NCBI GenBank assembly: GCA_001819395.1
Contig: MHMQ01000032.1
Location: forward strand, 20,150 to 84,149
Origin: Candidatus Niyogibacteria bacterium RIFCSPLOWO2_01_FULL_45_48
GTDB taxonomy: Bacteria; Patescibacteriota; Minisyncoccia; HO2-45-28
DNA: 64,000 nucleotides
Direction of reading: 5' to 3'
The notes beneath the pieces are model-generated. The model was given only the letters and a program-made list of their open reading frames with translations. It was not told the DNA's origin and did no database searches. This document shows, piece by piece, positions 2,308-36,960 of the stretch. The translations under genes and the position numbers were made by a program. Each line of letters starts with the position of its first letter. The first letter of the stretch is position 1.

Positions 2308-3195
2308 ATGGCACACTTGCATGATGAGAAGATTAAAGAGTTAGAGAAGAAGGCGAATGAGATTCGCCAGACTTTGATTGAATCGTTAATTGAGGCGGGG
2401 TCGGGGCACTCGGCAGGGCCTTTGGGCATGGCTGATATTTTCACTTTGCTTTATTTTCATGTTTTGGAGCACGACCCGAAAAAACCGGATTGGCCGGAGC
2501 GCGACCGTTTGGTGCTTTCAAACGGCCACATTTGTCCCGTTCAATACGCGACAATGGCCCATGCAGGATATTTTTCAATCAAAGAAACCAAAACGCTTCG
2601 TAAATTAGGCACAAGGCTGCAGGGGCATCCTCATCGCACTTCGCTTCCGGGACTTGAGACGACCTCTGGCCCTTTGGGTTCCGGCCTTTCGCAGGCCGTC
2701 GGAATGGCGATTGCTTTAAGAATGGATGGCAAGAAAAACATCGTGTACTGTCTGATGTCTGACGGCGAGCACGACGCGGGGCAGACATGGGAGGCGGCAA
2801 TGCTTGCCGGCCGTGAAAAATTGTGGAATCTGGTTGCGATAATGGACAGGAACAACATCCAAATTGACGGTAACACAGAAGATATAATGCCGCTTGAACC
2901 TCTTCGCGCCAAATACGAAGCGTTCGGCTGGCATGTAATTGATGTAGGAGGGCATGACTTTCAAGAATTGAACTCGGCGATTGATGAGGCCAAGGCGGTT
3001 TTTGAAAAACCCACAATGATTATCGCGCACACCATTCCGGGCAAGGGCGTAGAATATATGGAGCGAGATTTTCGCTGGCACGGCGTTCCGCCGGGCAAGG
3101 GGCCCGAGGATAAATTCCCGCGCGACAAACAGGGCGCGGAGGCCATTAAAGAATTGCGCACATTATGGGGCAGAATAAAAAGCGAACATGAGTAA
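2308..3195 (+). CDS. transketolase, N-terminal (TPP-binding) subunit of a split enzyme
   Basis: 295 aa; GHSAGPLGMADI, LSNGH, GPLGSGLSQAVGMA, DGEHDAGQTWEA transketolase N-half signatures. Confidence 0.9.
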   Translation: MAHLHDEKIKELEKKANEIRQTLIESLIEAGSGHSAGPLGMADIFTLLYFHVLEHDPKKPDWPERDRLVLSNGHICPVQYATMAHAGYFSIKETKTLRKLGTRLQGHPHRTSLPGLETTSGPLGSGLSQAVGMAIALRMDGKKNIVYCLMSDGEHDAGQTWEAAMLAGREKLWNLVAIMDRNNIQIDGNTEDIMPLEPLRAKYEAFGWHVIDVGGHDFQELNSAIDEAKAVFEKPTMIIAHTIPGKGVEYMERDFRWHGVPPGKGPEDKFPRDKQGAEAIKELRTLWGRIKSEHE

Positions 3196-3197
3196 TT
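3170..3197. repeat. 28-bp direct repeat (copy 1) = 3' end of transketolase N-subunit gene
   Basis: GCAGAATAAAAAGCGAACATGAGTAATT; 27/28 identical copy at 4837-4864; partial copies at 3855-3871 and 3935-3948. Confidence 0.85.
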
Positions 3198-3200
3198 AAA

Positions 3201-3863
3201 ATGAATAATATAAACATGGGAACAAAAACAAAGATTTTTGCATTTAGTGCAATATTGACAATATCCTTAATATATCTGTTCAGTGGCTTATTTCGTTTAG
3301 GCGGGTATCTAAGCTATACATATTTGGGCGTTGACCTGTTTCTGGATAAGTATGGACCCGCTCTGCCCAAGCTAGCTTTCCTGCTTTTATGGATCTTAAT
3401 GGGTGTCGTCTTGTTAGTAATATTAAAGAGATATAAGGTTAAAAACTATGTATTGTCTAAAATCTTTTTGGTTTCTGCGTTTGAATTTTTCATATTTGTG
3501 ATCAATCTTGTGATAAGCAGTGCAGTTGGAGGTGTGCCGGGCATGACAGGAATATTTTCAGCAATGATAATAGTTTGTGCTTTGATGATTTTCTCAAGTC
3601 TGGTAAAAGATTTTGGAAACATGAAAATAGATCAATCAACGCTCGAGGCGCCGGAGATTTTGGCGAGAGATAATAGCGAGAAAAAAATCAGAAACCATAT
3701 CGTCAATCTCGTCATTATAATTTCGACTATGTTCATCGCTTGGGCTATTTTGAACTATTTCGTCTCCAGCGCGTATATACAATATTCTCTTTTTAGATTT
3801 AAAAGTCCTTATTATATTAACCCCTCCAGCTCTTTACGCCACCCAACTATTTGGGAAAAATAA
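3201..3863 (+). CDS. hypothetical integral membrane protein
   Basis: 220 aa, AT-rich, multiple TM helices; sits between the two transketolase subunit genes. Confidence 0.45.
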   Translation: MNNINMGTKTKIFAFSAILTISLIYLFSGLFRLGGYLSYTYLGVDLFLDKYGPALPKLAFLLLWILMGVVLLVILKRYKVKNYVLSKIFLVSAFEFFIFVINLVISSAVGGVPGMTGIFSAMIIVCALMIFSSLVKDFGNMKIDQSTLEAPEILARDNSEKKIRNHIVNLVIIISTMFIAWAILNYFVSSAYIQYSLFRFKSPYYINPSSSLRHPTIWEK

Positions 3864-3941
3864 AAAGCGAACACCAATGATTTTTATAAATTATAAATAT
3901 TGTGAAATCACGCACCGAACTTGTTCTGGTGCGAGGCGAAC

Positions 3942-4820: not shown

Positions 4821-4836
4821 TTAAAAATATTATAGA

Positions 4837-4864
4837 GCAGAATAAAAAGCGAGCATGAGTAATT
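4837..4864. repeat. 28-bp direct repeat (copy 2), encodes orphan ...SRIKSEHE* tail
   Basis: GCAGAATAAAAAGCGAGCATGAGTAATT just after the stop of the 3942-4820 gene. Confidence 0.85.
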
Positions 4865-4940: not shown

Positions 4941-7061
4941 ATGAAAATGAGGGTATTTGCAGCGGTCGTTACAATTATTATATTTTTAGGCGTTTTCGGC
5001 GCTCCGAAAGCTCACGCGGCATTAACCGAAGCCCAGATCCAGGCGATTTTGGGCCTTCTGCAATCGTTTGGCGCTGACCAGAGCGTTATAAATAACGTCA
5101 ACTCGTCGCTTCGTGGCGGGGTAGCGGTTGCGCCTTCAGGAACCGTACAAATCGCGCTTTTCACCGAGAATCTGGGTTGGGGGTCCACGCATCCCGAAGT
5201 TTCAAAACTGCAGCAGTTTTTAAAGGAGCGTGGATATTTTACCGGAGAAGTGACCGGAAGCTTTTTTGGCGCGACAGCGCAGGCAGTCAAAACATTCCAG
5301 TCTAAATACCAAATTGAGCAGAGCGGCTATTTCGGCCCGCAAACCCGCGCGGTTGCCAATAATATTTTACAAGGCGGGCAGACCCAGCCTTCCATCACCG
5401 TCCTTTCGCCGAATGGGGGAGAGGTGTGGGAAATTGGTTCTACAAACAGAATTGAATGGAAAAATTCGAATCTCCCCAGTGGCTCGGATCCGATAAACAT
5501 ACAATTGGTAAATGAACAAGGGGTTCTTATTACGACAATTGCTCAAGGTGTAGCAACGGGGGGTGTTTCCACAGGAGTGGGCGGGGGGGCGTATATGTGG
5601 ACTATTCCAAGTTCAATGAGCTCGGGCACTTATCGTATTAGAGTTATTTGCACCAAAGAACTTGCAGACTGTTTTTCTGGAAGCCTTCCTGTTAGCGATA
5701 CAAGCGACGCGCCGTTCAGTATTGTGGCACCCACAACGACGACCCTGCCTTCCGCCGGCTCTCTTTCTGTTTCGCTTGATTCCGCGACAAGTTTTGGATT
5801 TAGGAATGTGCTTATCGGATCAACCGGTGTTAGCCTTGCCAGCCTTAGATTCACTGCGGTCGGCGAAGATATCGATGTCAAACAGATAGCGCTTCAACTT
5901 TCGGACACCGCCCTTAACACTCCGGACGACCTTTTAAATCGAGAAATTCAACTCTACGACGGGAACGCTGTTTTGATCGGCCGGGCGGTTTTTACAACCG
6001 GCGATTACGCGATATCGACAAACATAATTAATTTCAGGGTGCCCGGAGGAGGATCCAAAGTCATGTTTATCAAGGGCGATATTGCCGCCAATGCGACTAT
6101 CGGCGACACGCTGAAAGTTGATTACGACGGCAATAATGCCGGTCTTGGAGGAAATTATGGTGTTGGTTGGACATCAGGCAATACCATTATTCCAACAGGT
6201 TCTGACACCGCTTCAGCCGGAGTTAAAATTATAAGTCCAACATCGGCAACCCAGCCCTCAATCACCGTTCTTTCGCCGAATGGCGGAATCGCCCAACTGT
6301 CCGGAGGCGCGTTTGATATTAAGTATAGAACTTCGGGTGTTTCGCGAATTGGTTTGGTTTTGATTAAAAATGGCGTGACGGTTTCTAGTGTTGGTATGTT
6401 CGACCAACTTGCCGACGGCGAGCACAGCGTGGCTTTCCTTGTGGGCCCACACAACGAACAAACTATCGGAACAGGAAGCGGATACAAAGTTAAGATTTAT
6501 AATTGGGATAACGCGAGTACTGTTGATGAGAGCGATGCTTTGTTTAGTATCGTGAAGCCGTCCCTGACCGCAAGCCTTGATGCGGGTTCTCCTGCTGGTT
6601 CTATTCTGGCGGGGACCTCCCGCGTTTCTTTAATGAGGGTTAAATTGTCGGCGGGGGATAGTGACGTGAAAATCAACGGCGTAACTATTCAAGACAACGG
6701 CGCAGGCGGCAGAATATCAAATTTAGAACTAACGACACCGACGCAACAAGATGCCGAAACTCACTTGGCCAATGGCGTTGCCATGGGCGGCGGCAGATAT
6801 CAGTTTTCGGCTCCCATCACGATTCCGGCAAACGGCAGTAAATTGCTGGACATTAGAGTCAATGTTTCGCCAACAGCATCGGGAGGCGTGTGGCTGACGT
6901 TTGAAAGTGTTCTTCATGGTTATGGCAACAGTTTGGTTGTCAGCGGTTTGGGATTTCAGGGCTCAATTCTCAACATAACCGGAACGTCGTCAATTGTTCC
7001 CAATGCCAGAAACTTTGCGAATATTTTTCAGTGGTGGCCTTTGACGATGGCTCCTCGCTAG
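4941..7061 (+). CDS. secreted Ser/Thr/Gly-rich surface protein with peptidoglycan-binding (PG_binding_1-like) domain and internal repeats
   Basis: Signal peptide MKMRVFAAVVTIIIFLGVFGAPKAHA; PG-binding-like stretch HPEVSKLQQFLKERGYFTGEVTGSFFGATAQAVKTFQ; repeated QPSITVLSPNGGE modules at approx nt 5390 and 6250. Confidence 0.65.
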   Translation: MKMRVFAAVVTIIIFLGVFGAPKAHAALTEAQIQAILGLLQSFGADQSVINNVNSSLRGGVAVAPSGTVQIALFTENLGWGSTHPEVSKLQQFLKERGYFTGEVTGSFFGATAQAVKTFQSKYQIEQSGYFGPQTRAVANNILQGGQTQPSITVLSPNGGEVWEIGSTNRIEWKNSNLPSGSDPINIQLVNEQGVLITTIAQGVATGGVSTGVGGGAYMWTIPSSMSSGTYRIRVICTKELADCFSGSLPVSDTSDAPFSIVAPTTTTLPSAGSLSVSLDSATSFGFRNVLIGSTGVSLASLRFTAVGEDIDVKQIALQLSDTALNTPDDLLNREIQLYDGNAVLIGRAVFTTGDYAISTNIINFRVPGGGSKVMFIKGDIAANATIGDTLKVDYDGNNAGLGGNYGVGWTSGNTIIPTGSDTASAGVKIISPTSATQPSITVLSPNGGIAQLSGGAFDIKYRTSGVSRIGLVLIKNGVTVSSVGMFDQLADGEHSVAFLVGPHNEQTIGTGSGYKVKIYNWDNASTVDESDALFSIVKPSLTASLDAGSPAGSILAGTSRVSLMRVKLSAGDSDVKINGVTIQDNGAGGRISNLELTTPTQQDAETHLANGVAMGGGRYQFSAPITIPANGSKLLDIRVNVSPTASGGVWLTFESVLHGYGNSLVVSGLGFQGSILNITGTSSIVPNARNFANIFQWWPLTMAPR

Positions 7062-7077: not shown

Positions 7078-8103
7078 GTGTCGGTTAACCCCAAATCAAA
7101 ATTAGTTAAAGAAGTTTTGGACTTAAAAAAAGTCGGGCAGGCGCCGACGAGGAACGGGTATGGGGAAGGATTGGTGGAGGCGGGCAGGAAAGACAAAAAT
7201 GTGGTGGTGCTTTGCGCTGACCTGACCGAATCCACGCGTTCGGAAGCGTTTGCCAAAGAATTTCCGGAGAGATTCGTTCAAATGGGTGTGGCCGAGCAAA
7301 ATATGGCTTCGGTTGCGTCCGGCATGGCCGCGGTCGGCAAAATTCCTTTCATTTCTTCTTACGCCATGTTTAGCCCGGGGAGGAACTGGGAGCAGATAAG
7401 AACGACGATTTGCTATAACGAACGGCATGTGATTATCGGAGGCGCGCATGCGGGGGTTTCGGTGGGTCCTGACGGCGCGACGCATCAGGCAATTGAAGAT
7501 ATTGCCATAACCCGCGTTTTGCCGAATATGACCGTGATTGTGCCTTGCGATGCGGTTGAGGCCAAAAAAGCGACTGTGGCCTCGGTGGGGCTGAAAGGCG
7601 CTGTGTATCTTCGCTTTGCCCGCGAAAAAACGCCGGTATTCACAACCGACAAAACTCCGTTTAAGGTTGGACGTGCTGAAATACTTTGGGATTCAAGCGG
7701 TAGTCCCTCGCTTCGCTCGGGACGATCACGGCTTGACGTAGCCGTGATCGCTTGTGGGCCGTTGGTTCATAACGCGCTTTTGGCCGCGGCAGATTTAGAA
7801 AAGAAAGGGATCAAGGTCCGCGTTATCAATAACCACACCATAAAGCCGATGGACGAGAAAACTATTTTGAAAGCCGCAAAAGATGCGGGCGCATTAGTAA
7901 CGGTTGAGGAGCATCAGATAAACGGGGGAATGGGCTCGGCCGTGGCCGAAATAATCACACGAAATTATCCCGTGCCGATTGAATTTGTCGGAGTCAAAAA
8001 CCGCTTCGGCGAGTCAGGAGAGCCAACCGAACTTATTGAACATTTCGGTATGTCGTCAAAGCACATAATTGAAGCGGCGCGTAGGGCGATAAAGAGAAAG
8101 TAA
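7078..8103 (+). CDS. transketolase, C-terminal (pyrimidine-binding/C-domain) subunit
   Basis: GTG start; GYGEGLVEAG, FVQMGVAEQNM, GATHQAIEDIA motifs of transketolase C-half. Confidence 0.9.
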   Translation: MSVNPKSKLVKEVLDLKKVGQAPTRNGYGEGLVEAGRKDKNVVVLCADLTESTRSEAFAKEFPERFVQMGVAEQNMASVASGMAAVGKIPFISSYAMFSPGRNWEQIRTTICYNERHVIIGGAHAGVSVGPDGATHQAIEDIAITRVLPNMTVIVPCDAVEAKKATVASVGLKGAVYLRFAREKTPVFTTDKTPFKVGRAEILWDSSGSPSLRSGRSRLDVAVIACGPLVHNALLAAADLEKKGIKVRVINNHTIKPMDEKTILKAAKDAGALVTVEEHQINGGMGSAVAEIITRNYPVPIEFVGVKNRFGESGEPTELIEHFGMSSKHIIEAARRAIKRK

Positions 8104-8201
8104 GAAATCAACTATAAATGTAAACCCTACGTCGCAAGCTCCTCAGGGTCCTCAAAAAATATAGTCGCTACAGCTCCTTATTTTTTGGGAAATAAAAAAA
8201 A

Positions 8202-8229
8202 CCGCCGCGGGAAGCGTTTCCCCGCGGCG
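8202..8229 (-). terminator. rho-independent terminator for the minus-strand gene ending at 8272
   Basis: CGCCGCGGG / CCCGCGGCG 9-bp GC stem preceded on + strand by an A-run (T-run on minus strand). Confidence 0.55.
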
Positions 8230-8271
8230 AGCGTTCTAAACGTCCCACTCAGACGTCTTTCGTGGCCAGTT

Positions 8272-8529
8272 TCATAATGTGAGTAGCAGAACAGCCGACG
8301 TCAGAATTGCGCCGATGGCCATCCCCCAGAACTGCCCCCATTCTTTCTGTTTCCAGCCAAGTTGGGCAAAAGTCAGCTGGATGTAAATTCCAAGGATAAG
8401 CATCGGGACTGACAATCCCGACACGTTCCTCGTTCTGATGACCGTTTCCAGTTGCAGAGCCCAAGCCAGCACGTTTACCACGCCGGCTGTCCACACTCTT
8501 GTTTCCAAGCTGAATATTTTTCTGAGCAC
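8272..8529 (-). CDS. SemiSWEET / PQ-loop (MtN3-like) small sugar transporter
   Basis: 85 aa, three TM helices, ALQLETVIRTRNVSGLS PQ-loop-like motif; size typical of bacterial SemiSWEETs. Confidence 0.5.
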   Translation of the reverse strand: MLRKIFSLETRVWTAGVVNVLAWALQLETVIRTRNVSGLSVPMLILGIYIQLTFAQLGWKQKEWGQFWGMAIGAILTSAVLLLTL

Positions 8530-8623
8530 GGCGCTGTCTCCTTGCGTGGTCTCCCGTGGTTTTTGTCAAAAAACTTCCCGCCAAAATTTTCAAATCTATA
8601 AAATTGTTTTAAAAACTTTGGTG

Positions 8624-8662
8624 GGGCCCCGACGCTTCGCCTAAGCGAAGGTCGGGGCATGA
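8624..8662. repeat. GC-rich palindromic hairpin GCCCCGACGCTTCGC-ctaa-GCGAAGGTCGGGGC (terminator-like)
   Basis: Near-perfect ~15-bp stem with CTAA loop, directly downstream (minus strand) of the 8669-8884 gene; core GCCCCGAC...GTCGGGGC recurs inside the 136-bp elements at 33879-34686. Confidence 0.6.
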
Positions 8663-8668
8663 TGCGAC

Positions 8669-8884
8669 TTACTTGTTGGAGGACCGGCTCATCGCCTGGT
8701 CCAGCAGGAAGGCAAAGCCCGCCTCCAACACGAAGATCAGTCCGCCGATCACGAGGGCGTTCTTCGTTTTGGCGAAGAACTCGACGGTGAGGCCGAAGGG
8801 CGGGGCGTTCAGCGTCAGCGTGTAGAACGCCGACCCGAACATGATGAGACCGCAAATCAACAGCGTAAATCCGATGTGTTTCAT
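8669..8884 (-). CDS. small hydrophobic membrane protein, hypothetical (GC-rich island)
   Basis: 71 aa, two TM helices; local GC clearly above surrounding genes. Confidence 0.35.
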   Translation of the reverse strand: MKHIGFTLLICGLIMFGSAFYTLTLNAPPFGLTVEFFAKTKNALVIGGLIFVLEAGFAFLLDQAMSRSSNK

Positions 8885-8992
8885 GTTCGTCTCCTTATCG
8901 TGTGTGCGAGTTTTGATCTCAATGGAACAATCCTTAAATTACTTTTTAATTATACCAAAAAATAGGCCGTTTGTCAATAGCTGAAGAAAAAT

Positions 8993-9014
8993 GCCTGCCT
9001 GCCGGCAGGCGGGG
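8993..9014. terminator. palindrome GCCTGCCTGCCGGCAGGCGGGG, bidirectional terminator-like (copy 1 of 2)
   Basis: Near-perfect palindrome immediately downstream of minus-strand pfkB gene (ends 9030), followed by T-run on minus strand; same palindrome at 15701-15722. Confidence 0.55.
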
Positions 9015-9029
9015 CTAAAATGGTCGTTT

Positions 9030-10022
9030 TTAAAGTCTTTTTGGTTTGTAGTCAGTGGGGGCTTCAGCTAAATATTTTTCTAGTTGTTTTCTGGTCAAGA
9101 GCCCTTTTTGCGCGCCTATTTGTTGGACGACTGACATTGAGTTGACCGGCCCCCACATGAGGGCGGTCGGAATGTCAAAACCGAGTGCCATGGCCGCGGT
9201 AAAAGTGGAAGAAAAAGAATCTCCGGCGCCGGTGCGTTCAAAGGGCGGTTTGGGGTCGGGATACATCGGCATATACCAGCATTCTTTGCCGTCGTGGGCG
9301 TAGGCGCCGTTCGGACCGTCGGTAATGACCGCAATTTTCGGGCCGAGCTCATGAATGCCCGAAAGTAATTTTTTAACGTCGCGCTCGCTTGTTTTTAAAA
9401 TTCGTTTGGCTTCGCCGACATTACAGAAAAAAAGTTCTGAAACAGAATAAATGTCGGCCAGCTGTTCCGAGCCCAGCTTTATCTGAAAAGTGCCGGGCTG
9501 GAATGCGAGTTTGGTTTCCGGATGGTTTTTGAGCCATTTGGCGATTTCGTGGTGGTAGGGAAGAGAGTTTTCCGCTAAAGACGAAAGATAGAGCCAGCGC
9601 GGGGCCGGAATATCCGGAAACTTATAATCGTATTCCTGGTGCTTTATTAAAATAGTCCGTTCTTCTTCATACCATAAAACATAATGATAGTTTGTTTCCT
9701 TGTCTTTATGGGTTTTGACGAATTCGGAGTTTACTTTTTCTTTTTTGAGTGTTTCCAGACATTCTTTGCCGTTTAGATCGTCGCCCATGTTTGAAACAAG
9801 ACCAGAAGCAAGGCCCAGGCGCGAGGCCGATACAGCGGCATTCGGGCTGTTGCCTACAGCCCGCACTACCTCCACGAATTCATAAGGCACCTTCTCGCCG
9901 AAGCTGAAACAGAGCTTGCAGTGCTCGCGGTTAATGTCGCAATTGACCGAGGCGTCTTTTATTCTGATAAAAGCATCTGTCGTAATGTCGCCCAAAGCGA
10001 CGAAATCCAGAGTTTTTTTCAT
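9030..10022 (-). CDS. PfkB-family carbohydrate/nucleoside kinase (ribokinase-like)
   Basis: 330 aa; C-terminal TGAGDSF...motif of ribokinase/PfkB family; GNSPNAAV N-terminal sugar-binding region. Confidence 0.75.
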   Translation of the reverse strand: MKKTLDFVALGDITTDAFIRIKDASVNCDINREHCKLCFSFGEKVPYEFVEVVRAVGNSPNAAVSASRLGLASGLVSNMGDDLNGKECLETLKKEKVNSEFVKTHKDKETNYHYVLWYEEERTILIKHQEYDYKFPDIPAPRWLYLSSLAENSLPYHHEIAKWLKNHPETKLAFQPGTFQIKLGSEQLADIYSVSELFFCNVGEAKRILKTSERDVKKLLSGIHELGPKIAVITDGPNGAYAHDGKECWYMPMYPDPKPPFERTGAGDSFSSTFTAAMALGFDIPTALMWGPVNSMSVVQQIGAQKGLLTRKQLEKYLAEAPTDYKPKRL

Positions 10023-14822: not shown

Positions 14823-15091
14823 GTTTTTATTTTTTTCTAAATGGTGCTGATTTAAAGCGATAGCAGATTTTTAGCACCTTTTTATTTTTTGACCAGTTGT
14901 TAAATTCGTCCATATGGTAAAAAATGACAACTTTTAGAAACATAGTCCAAAATCTATTCTCAAATTCTCAAGAATATTGGAATAGATTTAATTAAGCGCA
15001 AGCAAGGGTTTAAATGACTTGACAACAATGTTTTCCAGGCTTAATATTGGCGAGAGTAAGTTCTTTAAAAAGAGAGGGGGGGTAGGGCGCG

Positions 15092-15562
15092 ATGGCTGCC
15101 ATAAACGAAATTCTTTTTAGATATAACCGCTGCACACAGGAAGTCAAAGAAGCCGTAAATGTTTTATACACACAACTCGAAGGCTTGCAAAAATTGAGAA
15201 GGGAAATGAGGGGCTGTTTGGAAGGGTTGTGGGGAGCGTTGATGTGCGCTGTTGTCATGGCTTTTGTGGTCATACCGTTGATGTCAGGTTTTTTGCCAGC
15301 ACTTTTAGTTTTCGGAAAAAACTGGTTTTTTGTCGCGAGCTTCGTTTTGTGGTTTTTTGCGGTTTCTTTTATAAATTATATGACCGGATGGCGCATTTCT
15401 AAGCCGTATTTTGATGCGAAACGTCTGGAGTTGAAGAAAACCTTTTCGGGGTATGTAAACGAAAAAGACATTTTGGCTCTGCGATTTGTGTACGAATTTG
15501 ATCCTGATTTGGTAAGGTTGGCGGATCTTGAGTGGTTAGTTGCAAAACTGCGGGTTGATTAA
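15092..15562 (+). CDS. hypothetical membrane protein
   Basis: 156 aa, two to three TM helices, no motif. Confidence 0.35.
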   Translation: MAAINEILFRYNRCTQEVKEAVNVLYTQLEGLQKLRREMRGCLEGLWGALMCAVVMAFVVIPLMSGFLPALLVFGKNWFFVASFVLWFFAVSFINYMTGWRISKPYFDAKRLELKKTFSGYVNEKDILALRFVYEFDPDLVRLADLEWLVAKLRVD

Positions 15563-19650: not shown

Positions 19651-20883
19651 ATGAACAAGAGAGTCGCTGTCATAGTTGGCGGCGGGTTTGGCGGGGTAAG
19701 GGCGGCCTTGGACCTGTCGCGTCACAAGCATGATTTAAAAGTGGTTTTGGTTGACAAAAACGGATACCATTCGTATCCGGCCGACTACTATAAGCTTCTT
19801 TCGCCTTCGTCCGATCATAAAGAGCATTTCGGGCCAGCCAAATTCCGCCTGATGTTTTCAAGCGTTTCAATTCCTCTTCCTGAAATTTTTGAGGGCATTG
19901 AAAGCGTGGAAATTTTGACGGACGAAGCCGTGGGCTTCGATGTTCGCGCGAGCCTAGTCAAATTGGCCTCCGGCGGAGAAATAAAATACGACTGGCTTAT
20001 TCTTGCTCCGGGGTCGGTGACGAATTTTTACGGCGTGCCCGGCCTTAAGTCGCGTGCTTTGGAATTTAAAACAACGTCAGACTCACTGAATCTCCGCAAC
20101 GCGGTTGACGAGGTTTTTGAGCGAAAAGGAAAACGAGAGCCTATAAACATAGTTGTTGGCGGGGGAGGATTTACCGGATGCGAAGTGGCTTCGGAGCTTG
20201 TGGGGTATGCAGACAGTCTTTCGCGCATTCACGGCCATCCCAGAGACAGCGTTTATGTTTCAATAATAGAAGCTTCGCCGGTCTTGCTCGGGCCTTTAAG
20301 CGATTGGGCCAAGCGCAAGACGGAGGCGAGGTTAAAAAAACTTGGCGTTAAAATTTTTCTTTCCGACCCGATTATTGATGTTATGGATGGAGCATTGCGG
20401 CTAAAAAGCGGAAAAGAAATCCGGTTTGATGTTTTGGTTTGGGCCGCCGGAGTCAAAGCAAATTTTTTGGGCGAAAAAATTGAGGGAGCGGAGCTGGCCA
20501 AAGGATCGTGCTTAATGGTTGACGAATATTTAAGAGTCGGAAACCATGAAAATATTTTTGCCGTAGGCGATATCGCTTTTTGCGAAGGGTTTGATAAAAA
20601 GCCGATGCCGATGACCAGTCAGACCGCAGTATCGCAGGGGCAGTACGTCGCTTACTCAATCAAAAGACAGCTTCACGGCCGGAAAATTTTCAAATATCAT
20701 CCGAGGGAATCAAAATTTATCATGCCTCTCGGCGGTAAATACGCCATAACCGACTTGGGGTTCGTTAAAATTTCCGGATTTTTAGCGTGGTATCTTAAAC
20801 GTTTCGTGGCCCTGAAATATTTTTTAAGCATTTTACCCGCCACGAAAGCGTTTAAAGTTTGGTGGAGAGGGGCGAGGTTTTGA
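19651..20883 (+). CDS. ndh: type II NADH dehydrogenase (NDH-2) / FAD-dependent pyridine nucleotide-disulfide oxidoreductase
   Basis: 410 aa; two dinucleotide-binding motifs VAVIVGGGFGGV and IVVGGGGFTGCE; C-terminal amphipathic membrane anchor. Confidence 0.75.
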   Translation: MNKRVAVIVGGGFGGVRAALDLSRHKHDLKVVLVDKNGYHSYPADYYKLLSPSSDHKEHFGPAKFRLMFSSVSIPLPEIFEGIESVEILTDEAVGFDVRASLVKLASGGEIKYDWLILAPGSVTNFYGVPGLKSRALEFKTTSDSLNLRNAVDEVFERKGKREPINIVVGGGGFTGCEVASELVGYADSLSRIHGHPRDSVYVSIIEASPVLLGPLSDWAKRKTEARLKKLGVKIFLSDPIIDVMDGALRLKSGKEIRFDVLVWAAGVKANFLGEKIEGAELAKGSCLMVDEYLRVGNHENIFAVGDIAFCEGFDKKPMPMTSQTAVSQGQYVAYSIKRQLHGRKIFKYHPRESKFIMPLGGKYAITDLGFVKISGFLAWYLKRFVALKYFLSILPATKAFKVWWRGARF

Positions 20884-24836: not shown

Positions 24837-24862
24837 AAATCTGTTCTAATATTCTTGAGAAT

Positions 24863-25279
24863 TTGAGAATGAATGATATATATCAGGAGTTGATAATGGA
24901 GCATGCGAGAAATCCGAGAAATGTCGGAGTTATTCGAGGTGCCAAGAAAATTTTGGCTAAAAATCCTTTTTGCGGAGACGAAGCGGAGATTTATTTAAAA
25001 ATTAAAAACAACAAGGTCATTGACATAAAATATCAGATTCAGGGGTGTATTTTATCTCGCGCTTCGCTCTCAATTTTTTCGGAATATATTAAGGGAAAGT
25101 CTACAAGCGCGGTCTCAAAAATCAAAGACGAAGATATTTTCAAAATGATCGGCGGCACCCCCTCACCCTCCCGCCAAAAGTGCGTTTTATTTGGATGCGA
25201 AGCAATTCATGCTAATTTAGATACATGGCCGAAGAAAAACCCATCGACAAGACTCATGACAAGAAGATCGCAAAAATAG
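24863..25279 (+). CDS. sufU: SufU/IscU-like Fe-S scaffold (NifU N-terminal domain)
   Basis: NPFCGD, QIQGCILSRAS, FGCEAIH cysteine triad; 3' tail overlaps ferredoxin gene. Confidence 0.7.
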   Translation: MRMNDIYQELIMEHARNPRNVGVIRGAKKILAKNPFCGDEAEIYLKIKNNKVIDIKYQIQGCILSRASLSIFSEYIKGKSTSAVSKIKDEDIFKMIGGTPSPSRQKCVLFGCEAIHANLDTWPKKNPSTRLMTRRSQK

Positions 25280-27214: not shown

Positions 27215-27238
27215 TTGCAAGAATAACAATTCACTTTC
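27215..27238. repeat. left arm of perfect 24-bp inverted repeat TTGCAAGAATAACAATTCACTTTC
   Basis: Exact reverse complement at 27394-27417; arms separated by 155 bp. Confidence 0.9.
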
Positions 27239-27393
27239 TTATGACGGCGCTTCGAATCTTAAAAATTATGGTCGTTTTGTTCGCGAAAAATTAGCGCGAT
27301 ACCCCGTTTGCCCTCTTGCTTCGCAAAAAGTTTTCCGACCGCGATTTTTCGCTCCAAAACTCCCTAATTTTAAAATATTCTCCGCGAGTCAAC

Positions 27394-27417
27394 GAAAGTG
27401 AATTGTTATTCTTGCAA
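27394..27417. repeat. right arm of 24-bp inverted repeat GAAAGTGAATTGTTATTCTTGCAA
   Basis: See 27215-27238. Confidence 0.9.
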
Positions 27418-27423
27418 TAAAAT

Positions 27424-27645
27424 ATGGAATCACGCATAAAAGAAATTTTGGATAAAGAAGTGAGGCCAATGCTCGCGATGCATCTGGGCGATTTGGAGTT
27501 TATGGGATTTGAAAACGGCGTTGTGAAGTTAAGAATGAAAGGCAACTGCCAAGGGTGTCCGTTGAGCATCGTCACACTTAAAGCGGGCATTGAGCGAATT
27601 TTAAAATCCAAAATTCCGGAGGTTCAAAGCGTGGAGGAAGCATAA
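27424..27645 (+). CDS. NifU-like C-terminal domain protein (Nfu-type Fe-S carrier)
   Basis: 73 aa; GNCQGCPLS CxxC motif. Confidence 0.75.
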   Translation: MESRIKEILDKEVRPMLAMHLGDLEFMGFENGVVKLRMKGNCQGCPLSIVTLKAGIERILKSKIPEVQSVEEA

Positions 27646-33837: not shown

Positions 33838-33878
33838 TTTTTGATATTATTATATAGTATTTTTTGCGCCATTTGCGC

Positions 33879-34014
33879 GAAAGGGGGTCGGGGAAAAGCG
33901 GAAGGGTTTCCCCGCGGAGGAAAACAGACCCGACGCGCGAAGCGGTCGGGGCGCTAGAAACCGAGGGTTTCTAGGGAGCACGAGCGAATCCCTTGAGGTG
34001 AGCGAGCTGCGACG
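33879..34014. repeat. 136-bp GC-rich structured element, copy 1
   Basis: GAAAGGGGGTCGGGG...CTAGAAACCGAGGGTTTCTAG...GCGAGCTGCGACG; identical to copies 2 and 3 except one substitution (A for C in ACAGACCCGAC). Confidence 0.9.
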
Positions 34015-34074
34015 AAAATGGTGCAGAAAGCACACGGTTCATAAAGAAGTCAAAATAACGGCTTAGATTTTTTT

Positions 34075-34145
34075 GGGGGTATGGTTCAATGGTAGAACAT
34101 TGGTCTCCAAAACCAAAGATCAGGGTTCGATTCCTTGTACCCCCG
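34075..34145 (+). tRNA. tRNA-Trp (anticodon CCA), copy 1
   Basis: Acceptor GGGGGTA/TACCCCC, D-stem GTTC/GAAC, anticodon stem TTGGT/ACCAA with loop CTCCAAA, T-arm CAGGG-TTCGATT-CCTTG (one G-U). Confidence 0.85.
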
Positions 34146-34193
34146 CATTGAAAATTTTGGCATCTTTTGATGCCTAGAATTTCAAATTTGATA

Positions 34194-34212
34194 GGTACAA
34201 GGAATCGAACCC
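34194..34212. repeat. inverted 19-nt copy of the tRNA-Trp T-arm/acceptor 3' end
   Basis: GGTACAAGGAATCGAACCC is the exact reverse complement of GGGTTCGATTCCTTGTACC in the upstream tRNA; second copy at 34530-34548. Confidence 0.85.
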
Positions 34213-34214
34213 AC

Positions 34215-34350
34215 GAAAGGGGGTCGGGGAAAAGCGGAAGGGTTTCCCCGCGGAGGAAAACAGCCCCGACGCGCGAAGCGGTCGGGGCGCTAGAAACCGA
34301 GGGTTTCTAGGGAGCACGAGCGAATCCCTTGAGGTGAGCGAGCTGCGACG
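34215..34350. repeat. 136-bp GC-rich element, copy 2
   Basis: Exact 336-bp period with copy 1. Confidence 0.9.
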
Positions 34351-34410
34351 AAAATGGTGCAGAAAGCACACGGTTCATAAAGAAGTCAAAATAACGGCTT
34401 AGATTTTTTT

Positions 34411-34481
34411 GGGGGTATGGTTCAATGGTAGAACATTGGTCTCCAAAACCAAAGATCAGGGTTCGATTCCTTGTACCCCCG
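34411..34481 (+). tRNA. tRNA-Trp (anticodon CCA), copy 2, identical to copy 1
   Basis: Same sequence 336 bp downstream. Confidence 0.85.
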
Positions 34482-34529
34482 CATTGAAAATTTTGGCATC
34501 TTTTGATGCCTAGAATTTCAAATTTGATA

Positions 34530-34548
34530 GGTACAAGGAATCGAACCC
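34530..34548. repeat. second inverted tRNA-Trp 3' fragment
   Basis: GGTACAAGGAATCGAACCC. Confidence 0.85.
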
Positions 34549-34550
34549 AC

Positions 34551-34686
34551 GAAAGGGGGTCGGGGAAAAGCGGAAGGGTTTCCCCGCGGAGGAAAACAGC
34601 CCCGACGCGCGAAGCGGTCGGGGCGCTAGAAACCGAGGGTTTCTAGGGAGCACGAGCGAATCCCTTGAGGTGAGCGAGCTGCGACG
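34551..34686. repeat. 136-bp GC-rich element, copy 3
   Basis: Identical to copy 2. Confidence 0.9.
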
Positions 34687-36935: not shown

Positions 36936-36960
36936 AAAACCCCGCGAAGCGGGGTTTTAT
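36936..36960 (+). terminator. leader hairpin/terminator 20 nt upstream of guaB start
   Basis: AAACCCCGC-gaa-GCGGGGTTTT followed by AT; lies inside the predicted guaB leader. Confidence 0.5.

Follow-up and report, generated by a model that had tools for sequence, protein, structure and literature searches.

Introduction

In Escherichia coli, intercistronic stem-loops and repetitive extragenic palindromic (REP) sequences (e.g. malE-malF) stabilise the upstream mRNA segment, while integron gene-cassette arrays consist of a promoter followed by successive units of an open reading frame (ORF) and an attC site. Here, we describe a GC-rich island that invites comparison with both systems. It lies within a 64,000-nucleotide (nt) stretch of DNA, which was analysed as a whole and is hereafter called the window (contig MHMQ01000032.1, positions 20,150 to 84,149 of the forward strand, assembly GCA_001819395.1), from Candidatus Niyogibacteria bacterium RIFCSPLOWO2_01_FULL_45_48. 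This organism belongs to the candidate phyla radiation (CPR), and its genome stems from groundwater metagenomes. The island comprises a minus-strand gene for a protein of 71 amino acids (aa) and, just downstream of it, two directly stacked hairpins, H1 and H2. We consider it probable that this island represents the first cistron and the 3' RNA structure of a lineage-specific, strain-variable small-protein operon, in which H1-H2 would serve as an attenuator or stabiliser.

As in the E. coli elements, H1 is a GC-rich intercistronic palindrome without an adjacent U-tract that follows a first gene predicted to be strongly expressed, and by analogy H1-H2 would be expected to block 3'-exonucleases and to set differential expression. 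Unlike for REP sequences, the 64 kb contain one H2 and two GCCCCGAC hairpins, the sequence of H1 is free to differ between cassettes, and H1 is coupled to a second hairpin whose sequence is conserved across CPR lineages. Intrinsic and attenuating terminators share with the locus the stable stem-loops that end a cistron, as the terminal hairpin of the operon, T, is canonical with a U8 tract and H2 in the window is followed by U6. In contrast to such terminators, H1 has no U-tract, the U-run of H2 stands 3 nt off and is missing in several relatives, and the downstream genes appear to depend on read-through. The resemblance to integron arrays lies in a single promoter that precedes small ORFs, each closed by an imperfect palindrome whose mismatch is conserved, in strain-level replacement at this palindrome, and in a cassette composition unlike that of the host. 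Unlike in integrons, H1 and H2 carry no attC cores (RYYYAAC/GTTRRRY, read from the sequences), no integrase was seen near the islands inspected at two related loci (L019 and L028; L numbers denote related loci throughout), and the first cassette takes its promoter along at another locus.

Two further systems are comparable. Ribosomal RNA (rrn) operon leaders and lambda nut sites combine boxB and boxA (PMC5725501), and the locus likewise presents a hairpin followed by GTTCTTT within a few bases, with similar hairpins occurring in CPR stable-RNA leaders; unlike rrn and nut sites, this putative site contains only the 5' half of boxA, is degenerate in the window copy and is positioned between cistrons instead of in a leader. 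With horizontally acquired islands, the locus shares a sharp local anomaly in GC content and codon usage at a strain-variable position. Here, however, the anomaly is confined to the synonymous sites of one 216-nt ORF and its hairpin, is common to all diverged members of the family and lacks a GC-type amino-acid composition, while no donor was found and no mobility genes were seen in the examined stretch between the pfkB-family and transketolase (tkt) genes. A literature search on CPR terminators or intergenic hairpins found nothing, and the H1-H2 module as well as the persistent synonymous GC skew described below appear to be undescribed so far.

A high-GC3 gene as first cistron of a small-gene operon

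The locus comprises the following features, in which GC3 denotes the GC fraction at third codon positions (GC1 and GC2 accordingly):

7078-8103, plus strand: transketolase gene (tkt), convergent with the operon, with T lying between the two.
8202-8230, no strand assigned: T, the hairpin ending the operon, CCGCCGCGGGGAAACGCUUCCCGCGGCG, with a U8 tail behind it on the minus strand; a canonical terminator.
8272-8529, minus strand: second cistron, encoding an 85-aa membrane protein, with GTG start, AAGGAGA Shine-Dalgarno sequence and GC3 of 0.605.
8560-8576, minus strand: post-H2 segment, AAG followed by GUUUUUUGACAAAAA, with a U6 run 3 nt past H2; relatives carry a conserved GTTCTTT box.
8577-8625, minus strand: H2, the conserved hairpin, CCCACCAAAGUUUUU-loop-AAAAUUUUGGCGGG; contains an A.C mismatch, and its upper stem is AU-rich; sole significant copy in the window.
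8626-8658, minus strand: H1, the hairpin of the original prediction, GCCCCGACCUUCGC-UUAG-GCGAAGCGUCGGGGC, 10 nt past the stop codon and without spacer to H2.
8669-8884, minus strand: 71-aa ORF, with two predicted helices, a conserved PPFGLT loop and GC3 of 0.875; member of a five-member family.
8890-8895, minus strand: Shine-Dalgarno sequence AAGGAG of the 71-aa gene, whose ATG is at 8884.
8949-8977, minus strand: sigma-70-type promoter, TTGACA-17-TATAAT, 12/12 matches, with an upstream extended-minus-10 TG.
8993-9010, minus strand: intrinsic terminator of the pfkB-family gene, GCCTGCCGGCAGGCAGGC followed by ATTTTTC, from the terminator scan.
9030-10022, minus strand: pfkB-family kinase gene (Pfam PfkB, E 2.6e-28).

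The original prediction, made from the letters of the window, had singled out this region as a GC-rich island with GC-ending codons, and both observations were borne out by sliding-window GC analysis and a codon-usage comparison. The GC-richest 216-nt window of the whole 64 kb starts at 8621 (0.634 GC), and the ORF at 8669-8884 has 57.4% GC compared with 45.4% over the window, so that the description of the surrounding genome as AT-biased holds only mildly. The enrichment is limited to H1 and the 71-aa ORF (8626-8884, 59% GC) and is flanked by AT-rich sequence on both sides (27% GC at 8560-8625 and 35% GC at 8885-8985, the 5' untranslated region (UTR) and promoter). Within the ORF, it resides in the third codon position, as GC1/GC2/GC3 amount to 0.47/0.375/0.875 with GC1 and GC2 not raised. 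The 64 window ORFs of at least 100 aa that served as comparison set have a mean GC3 of 0.468 (standard deviation 0.041, maximum 0.557), which places the 71-aa gene outside the gene-to-gene variance of the window. Given the protein and the codon usage of the window, 31.8 ± 3.9 G- or C-ending codons are expected among the 68 that have synonymous alternatives, whereas 60 are observed (z = 7.2).

When 5.8 billion protein clusters were searched with a word index, the 71-aa protein itself was the sole match, while an exhaustive HMMER scan of 1.84 billion representatives (~15 billion proteins) revealed three small homologues and a profile search one more, leading to a family of five members including the window protein. 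Long HMMER matches composed of multiple stretches were taken as spurious. The 71-aa protein matched no Pfam family at E up to 0.1, and PHROGs and NCBIfam searches with all five family members gave sub-threshold noise only. The five proteins are 67-73 aa long and share 16 invariant columns, including the starting M-K, a PFxLT loop and a GGL motif, with dN/dS values of 0.34-0.74 across the family; the AlphaFold model of the window protein consists of two helices (residues 4-25 and 34-68, pLDDT 69). Because promoter, Shine-Dalgarno site (5 nt before the ATG, read from the sequence), homologues with invariant columns, dN/dS values and the two-helix model all agree, we conclude that the 71-aa ORF is a genuine gene with a 12/12 sigma-70 promoter and a predicted two-helix product.

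All four homologues are found on CPR-like contigs, three of them beside Niyogibacteria-type neighbours or with the same promoter and module motifs, one of these three being in the pfkB-tkt locus. The homologue P0002 (63% identity) occupies the same pfkB-to-transketolase interval in a related metagenome-assembled genome (L011), where the order is pfkB, a P0005-like gene, a Cys-rich 68-aa ORF, P0002, an 84-aa gene and tkt; tandem paralogues of the family are present in L011 and L012. At L011 5326-5610 (CAYPMM010000008.1), the annotated 94-aa ORF (GC1 0.75) is on the wrong strand, the true gene being a P0005-type 73-aa paralogue on the opposite strand; small genes of high GC3 in these genomes are prone to antisense mis-calls. 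P0008 (62% identity) is located at a different locus of the relative L013, after an SLT_2 gene and with the same promoter. The pfkB-tkt interval of L013 follows the frame of the window locus, in which a promoter leads into 134 nt of GC-rich non-coding sequence (X), the H1-H2 pair and a gene for a 63-aa membrane protein, with the T hairpin before tkt; X was considered as a pseudogene of the family, which was dropped as tblastn returned nothing. The N-terminus of the window protein is closer to P0002, and its C-terminus closer to P0008.

Strain variants of the population represented by the window (L004, L005) are identical to it in promoter, gene, H1 and H2 and wholly different from position 8569 downward, after GGCGGGAAGTTTT, with other small genes replacing the 85-aa gene. 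As the contexts of P0002 and P0008 and these strain variants all differ, the pfkB-tkt interval is a variable small-gene operon, of which the 71-aa gene is the first cistron in Candidatus Niyogibacteria. The promoter (GCTATTGACAAA...TATAAT) is kept upstream of the homologous cassettes in L011, L013 and L017, and the predicted pfkB terminator isolates the operon from pfkB. The 85-aa protein of the second cistron shows a sub-threshold similarity to SemiSWEET/MtN3. The terminal hairpin T contains 12 pairs, 9 of them G-C; the same hairpin type closes the cassettes in L011 and L013, and similar hairpins with a CCGCGG stem close those in L017 and L048. The examined pfkB-tkt stretch showed neither a mobility gene nor a tRNA, and no direct repeat among the 20 largest families. 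Small membrane proteins and Cys-rich ones are concentrated in this operon of an episymbiont-type lineage, and such small proteins are plausible tools for interaction with a host or competitors.

In the co-occurring strain L004 (3590-4071; also in L005), the segment corresponding to window positions 8250-8570 comprises a 70-aa membrane ORF and, after it, an ORF that begins with MNVSKFKVGDLVEA and resembles the 84-aa gene of L011.

H1 and H2 form a module at a fixed position

The original prediction placed a long hairpin at 8624-8662. This hairpin is real, although its perfect outer stem (GCCCCGAC/GTCGGGGC) spans 8626-8658 and bases 8624-8625 are part of H2. Folded as RNA on the gene strand, H1 has a minimum free energy of -29.1 kcal/mol (z = -4.2), and none of 200 shuffles was as stable. 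All 12 instances, that is the window and 11 others, carry a GC-rich hairpin of 7-19 bp with a 0-nt spacer to H2, and their sequences are unrelated. Even in homologous cassettes the H1 sequences differ (CCCCGAUG..., GCUGGUUCGGCAG..., GCCGAAGCGA...) with position and pairing kept, and a compensatory change from C:G to U:A distinguishes the window from L011. Thus, H1 is, as judged from these alignments, conserved as a structure at a fixed position and not as a repeat sequence. A role of H1 followed by CCACCA as mimic of a tRNA minihelix or of a CCACCA tag was dropped, as variants swap A for G (CCCGCC in L017, CTCGCC in L013).

For H2, the consensus is (Y)CCCACCAAAGUUUUU-loop-AAAAUUUUGGCGGG. The exact two-part pattern was detected at 4 loci in GTDB species representatives and 28 in JGI metagenomes, and nowhere in the 2.9 million viral contigs of IMG/VR; CPR genomes and metagenomes together provided 26 distinct H2 instances. 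In an alignment of 20 distinct copies, 93.5% of the cells are paired compared with 87.5% in shuffles, and the upper stem covaries at pairs not fixed by the search pattern, with pair 18/36 being AU in 11 copies, GC in 6, CG in 1 and UA in 1. The covariance model R1, constructed from these H2 copies, found a single significant match in the window (8574-8627, 55.7 bits, E 1.7e-10), and in several other loci two to four modules clustered per locus. Weaker R1 matches at 20833, 47044 and 46706 (E > 0.5) were not counted as module copies. Rfam 15 returned chance-level matches only over 8150-9050 (E >= 0.88). At L020, three or four modules are present; its ORF map is uninterpretable, and the locus was not considered further.

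The H1-H2 architecture lies downstream of every family member and also of GC3-enriched small ORFs in other CPR contigs. There, the small ORFs preceding the module have GC3 values of 0.64 (L019), 0.68 (L022), 0.75 (L028), 0.69 (L030) and 0.69 (L040) against backgrounds of 0.39, 0.39, 0.38, 0.44 and 0.35, respectively. The same intercistronic arrangement is seen in L004, L011, L013, L017, L022, L026 and L048, while L019 and L028 have a common downstream flank and different upstream content.

Four loci contain extended islands with the module at their end (L019 4950-5760; L028 3200-4600, 1.4 kb; L026; L040), which have 52-61% GC in genomes of 27-41% GC and sit between a putative transcription regulator (TrmB-like by eye) and a UvrD-like helicase gene. 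These islands share a conserved tiny ORF (KYYVVNGVVYRSRAEAIAARQK) and a conserved GC-rich segment of ~150 nt without obvious ORF or Rfam match, and differ in their small ORFs (43-aa Cys-rich, 105-aa). Neither an integrase nor another mobility gene was seen in the inspected islands of L019 and L028.

U-type copies of H2 (CACCUAAG, the T variant) occur in settings other than the ends of small ORFs. The copy at L025 6654-6696 corresponds, on the opposite strand, to a native helix of 23S rRNA, that at L023 1906-1951 lies close to the 3' end of a 16S gene that contains an intron and a LAGLIDADG-type ORF, that at L049 5155-5203 is immediately 5' of the tmRNA gene and downstream of smpB, and that at L034 643-684 is ~30 nt upstream of a tRNA. 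The T-variant copies may be convergent AU-rich hairpins or may belong to a broader CPR processing motif; the A-type copies behind small ORFs are the class relevant here.

Taken together, the consensus promoter and strong ribosome-binding site would drive synthesis of the two-helix membrane protein. H1 would come next, ten bases past the stop codon and stacked directly on H2, behind which stands a short U-run in the window and the GTTCTTT box in relatives. The promoter scan revealed no promoter-like site between H2 and the 85-aa gene; because the arrangement recurs in relatives and the operon ends at T, we place H1-H2 in an intercistronic position. The downstream small genes, which have ribosome-binding sites of their own, would depend on read-through as far as the operon end at T. 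On the transcript, H1-H2 may act as a leaky terminator, as a barrier to 3'-exonucleases or processing, or as both, and the first cistron would consequently become far more abundant than the downstream genes.

The GC3 skew is shared across the family and probably persistent

The four homologues have GC3 values of 0.75-0.84, compared with 0.40-0.58 in neighbouring genes. Pooled over the five members, TTC outnumbers TTT by 33 to 6 (window usage 28:72), ATC:ATT:ATA amounts to 13:2:0 and TAC:TAT to 10:0, and the G-ending codons CTG, ACG and GCG are likewise favoured. The proteins themselves are Lys-rich and Arg-poor (K:R ~4:1 vs 1.4:1 in the window) and rich in F, Y, M, I, N and K (FYMINK; 0.35 in the 71-aa protein of the window). 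A gene from a donor with 60-65% GC would be expected to display the opposite of this low-GC-type amino-acid composition with ordinary GC1 and GC2, and a recent import from a high-GC organism is therefore unlikely.

In most comparisons to distant paralogues, codon identity at conserved residues is near the independent expectation (z -0.1 to 1.6, with one pair at 2.1). Since these paralogues nevertheless remain at GC3 0.82-0.84, the skew has outlasted synonymous turnover, and we infer that the use of G/C-ending codons is a persistent family trait and not the unameliorated mark of a recent import. As the skew is synonymous-only and family-wide and accompanies a low-GC-type protein, a gene-specific force must hold G or C at third positions in a genome of 45% GC. 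Candidate forces are RNA stability, cassette exchange and biased conversion. Translational selection is an unlikely cause, as no window gene of at least 100 aa, including those for L25 and ClpB, exceeds GC3 0.557 and G-ending codons are favoured too; regional biased gene conversion is unlikely too, since the 35% GC 5' UTR/promoter and the 27% GC H2 flank the gene directly. The locus provides a counter-example to the shortcut that a codon-usage outlier in a strain-variable locus equals recent horizontal transfer, and knowing which force maintains GC3 would affect the interpretation of codon usage in uncultivated lineages.

Several observations weigh against the reading as a stably maintained cistron with an attenuating or stabilising 3' module. 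No U-tract adjoins H1, as CCCACCAAAG comes before the first U-run. The U6 run after H2 begins 3 nt past the stem in the window and is U4 or absent in several relatives; neither H1 nor H2 is a canonical intrinsic terminator. The role of H1-H2 as intercistronic attenuator or RNA-stability module is itself something that we infer from sequence features, and copy numbers are lower bounds, as only the 64 kb of this genome were searched. With regard to the skew, mRNA folding found no support as its cause, because comparison of each member with 60 synonymous permutations (z -2.1, -0.1, -0.1, -1.1 and +0.6) gave no consistent excess stability. In addition, three close orthologues show an excess codon identity at conserved residues of ~0.5, compared with 0.12-0.5 in neighbouring genes, which points either to a constraint on their synonymous sites or to a cassette that has passed between relatives. 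The codon identity, the separate locus in L013 and the mosaic termini fit lateral cassette exchange among relatives and in-place maintenance equally well, and a transfer of the cassette between related CPR genomes is suggested.

Similarity to the tandem repeat at tRNA-Trp

The original prediction linked H1 to GC-rich elements elsewhere in the window and took both as members of a dispersed REP-like family. The features in question are:

33878-34686, plus strand: 336-bp tandem repeat with three 136-bp GC-rich elements (33878-34014, 34214-34350 and 34550-34686); related material outside the operon.
34263-34288 and 34599-34624, in elements 2 and 3: hairpin B, with the core GCCCCGACGC...GCGAAG...GGTCGGGGC.

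The core had been assigned to each of the 136-bp elements; elements 2 and 3 indeed carry it in full, whereas element 1 has GACCCGAC in its place. Taken alone, the match of the 10-mer arm of H1 is at chance level (E 6.2, one of ~16 such 10-mers), and among ~13 independent perfect GC-rich 8-bp hairpins in the window, two have the same stem GCCCCGAC/GTCGGGGC. Two further short matches add to this. T (8210-8227) agrees in 17/18 nt with positions 23-40 of the 136-bp element (E 0.025), and the exact 14-mer TTGAAAATTTTGGC occurs in the 3' arm of H2 (8580-8593, minus strand) and at 34148-34161 and 34484-34497 (plus strand), in the hairpin just after tRNA-Trp, with 0.35 matches expected even at one mismatch. 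The segment 8161-8640 ranked first of ~520 windows for 9-, 10- and 11-mers in common with the repeat unit, the matches not being colinear in orientation, and a third hairpin at 36938-36956 has the CCCCG...GCGAAGC design as well. Counting the two further matches, the alignments indicate that the similarity between operon and tRNA-Trp repeat is non-random.

The notion of a dispersed family found no support in the sequence searched. Although the location of H1, intercistronic and 10 nt past the stop codon, fits that of REP sequences, the pattern GCCCCGAC-N(4-30)-GTCGGGGC was found at just two loci in the 64 kb and nowhere else in ~300 kb comprising 55 related loci, R1 has one copy in the window, and the H1 sequence is unconserved. 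From the matches we conclude that the two loci reuse a few terminator-type hairpin pieces through descent or recombination, which amounts to a small repertoire and not to a dispersed REP-like family.

Rfam gave no non-tRNA match of note on the 136-bp element, and its assignment to a known RNA (tmRNA, SRP, tRNA-Sec etc.) was rejected, as the best match was a 15-bit one to tRNA-Sec (E 9). In each repeat unit, the element is accompanied by a diverged rpmG 3'-end copy (~75% identical by eye), a complete tRNA-Trp, a hairpin and the Trp T-arm as an inverted copy; past the last element lies a displaced tRNA 3' end, GGGTTCGATTCCCTCAGCTCCCG, that is foreign to tRNA-Trp. Only two 136-bp elements, not three, are present in NCBI contig MHMP01000022.1 and in two ENA assemblies from this population, and several contigs break inside the repeat; its copy number is uncertain or variable.

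Alternative explanations

One alternative is an undescribed, CPR-wide RNA/DNA punctuation module, in which H1-H2 together with GTTCTTT would mark the boundaries of GC-rich small-gene cassettes, be it as a signal for processing or antitermination or as an integron-like recombination site without recognisable integrase, and in which the near-exclusive G/C-ending codons would be actively maintained against host mutation by selection or a cassette-specific bias. We regard this as doubtful in its full extent. Little is known of transcript punctuation, termination and gene-cassette turnover in CPR bacteria, for which R1 and the motif provide concrete search tools.

A mobile cassette pool, in which the ORF, H1 and part of H2 are exchanged among CPR genomes with H2 as recombination site, giving an integron-like array behind one promoter whose GC3 derives from the pool, appears unlikely. 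It would account for the occurrence of H1-H2 behind small, GC3-enriched ORFs in four or more further CPR backgrounds, for the one-sided differences at the module (window vs L004/L005; L019 vs L028), for the L013 homologue at another locus with the same promoter, for a synonymous identity of close orthologues above that of most neighbouring genes, and for the 1.4-kb island of L028 with 52-61% GC in a 27-41% GC genome. It is difficult to reconcile with the lack of an integrase or mobility gene in the inspected islands and of attC-type R''/R' cores, with the low-GC-type amino-acid composition, and with a promoter and 5' UTR that move with the gene; moreover, conserved hairpins suit homologous recombination, and the junctions need no dedicated recombinase. 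The absence of the module from the viral contigs of IMG/VR and of the cassette from the phage collection INPHARED speaks against such a pool as well, and these results, together with the lack of a significant PHROG match, led us to reject a phage origin.

The segment after H2 can also be read as a boxB-boxA-like (nut/rrn-type) site, at which H2 and GTTCTTT would load Nus factors for read-through or serve as an RNA-processing mark. This is compatible with the attenuator or stabiliser function and, on balance, rather improbable. GTTCTTT follows H2 at a distance of 2-15 nt in nine instances from four lineages and equals the first seven positions of the boxA consensus GYTCTTTAANA, which is gamma-proteobacterial (PMC5725501); boxA is active outside rRNA operons too and varies between phyla (PMC7665894). 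The L048 sequence GTTCTTTAACG matches the consensus in 10/11 positions, H2-like T variants occur in stable-RNA leaders, 5' of tmRNA (L049) and upstream of tRNA (L034), and CPR rRNA leaders contain GCACTTTAACAA (L023) and GCTGTTTGAAAA (L025). Against this, the window copy is degenerate (GTTTTTTGACA) and located at the strain breakpoint, the 3' half of the box is unconserved, T-variant contexts carry the box inconsistently, one T-variant match is simply the 23S rRNA helix mentioned above, and neither GYTCTTTAANA nor AGTTCTTT is enriched in the window. The sole perfect boxA match in the window, GTTCTTTAAAA at 15060-15070, precedes an orphan 156-aa ORF that is not a Nus factor and was dismissed at a chance expectation of 0.62. 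Around it (15030-15095), a promoter-like TTGACA...TAATAT precedes GTTCTTTAAAA, which lies in the 5' UTR of this 156-aa ORF without Pfam match.

The original prediction, a recent acquisition from a high-GC organism outside the lineage accompanied by a REP-like palindrome copy, is largely refuted and retains very little probability. Its foundations, an ORF with extremely atypical codon usage inside the GC-richest 216 nt, a hairpin core that recurs near tRNA-Trp and a strain-variable locus, are real observations. Yet the search of the 1.84 billion representatives found no homologue besides the five small proteins on CPR-like contigs, the homologues have the same GC3 skew, one of them in the pfkB-tkt locus of another genome, GC1 and GC2 are not raised in a protein with a K:R ratio of 4:1, no mobility gene, tRNA or direct repeat accompanies the gene in the examined interval, the hairpin pattern occurs at just two loci, and homologous cassettes carry hairpins of differing sequence.

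Finally, a type I toxin-antitoxin-like unit, with a small hydrophobic toxin, a stable structured mRNA and an antisense RNA from the 3' flank, is scarcely credible, because the small two-helix membrane product, strong promoter, heavily structured 3' end and lineage-restricted family with tandem paralogues in L011/L012 are set against the lack of a promoter-like site on the opposite strand of the 3' flank, a Shine-Dalgarno sequence not conspicuously sequestered in the predicted fold, a length of 71 aa that exceeds most type I toxins, and co-transcription with other small genes.

Other repeats in the window

Three further repeats were noted outside the operon. A 34-nt inverted repeat (14956-14989 and 24837-24870) is 94% complementary, with arms 9.8 kb apart and both located between called ORFs. 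A perfect 24-nt inverted repeat, TTGCAAGAATAACAATTCACTTTC (27215-27238 and 27394-27417), encloses 155 nt and overlaps a 106-aa minus-strand ORF (27291-27611). A 36-nt direct repeat (3162-3197, 3847-3882 and 4829-4864; 72-92% identical) closely precedes each of three successive plus-strand genes, the last of which (4941-7061) encodes a 706-aa PG_binding_1/Kre9_KNH protein. This repeat appears to be a leader or ribosome-binding region common to paralogous genes.

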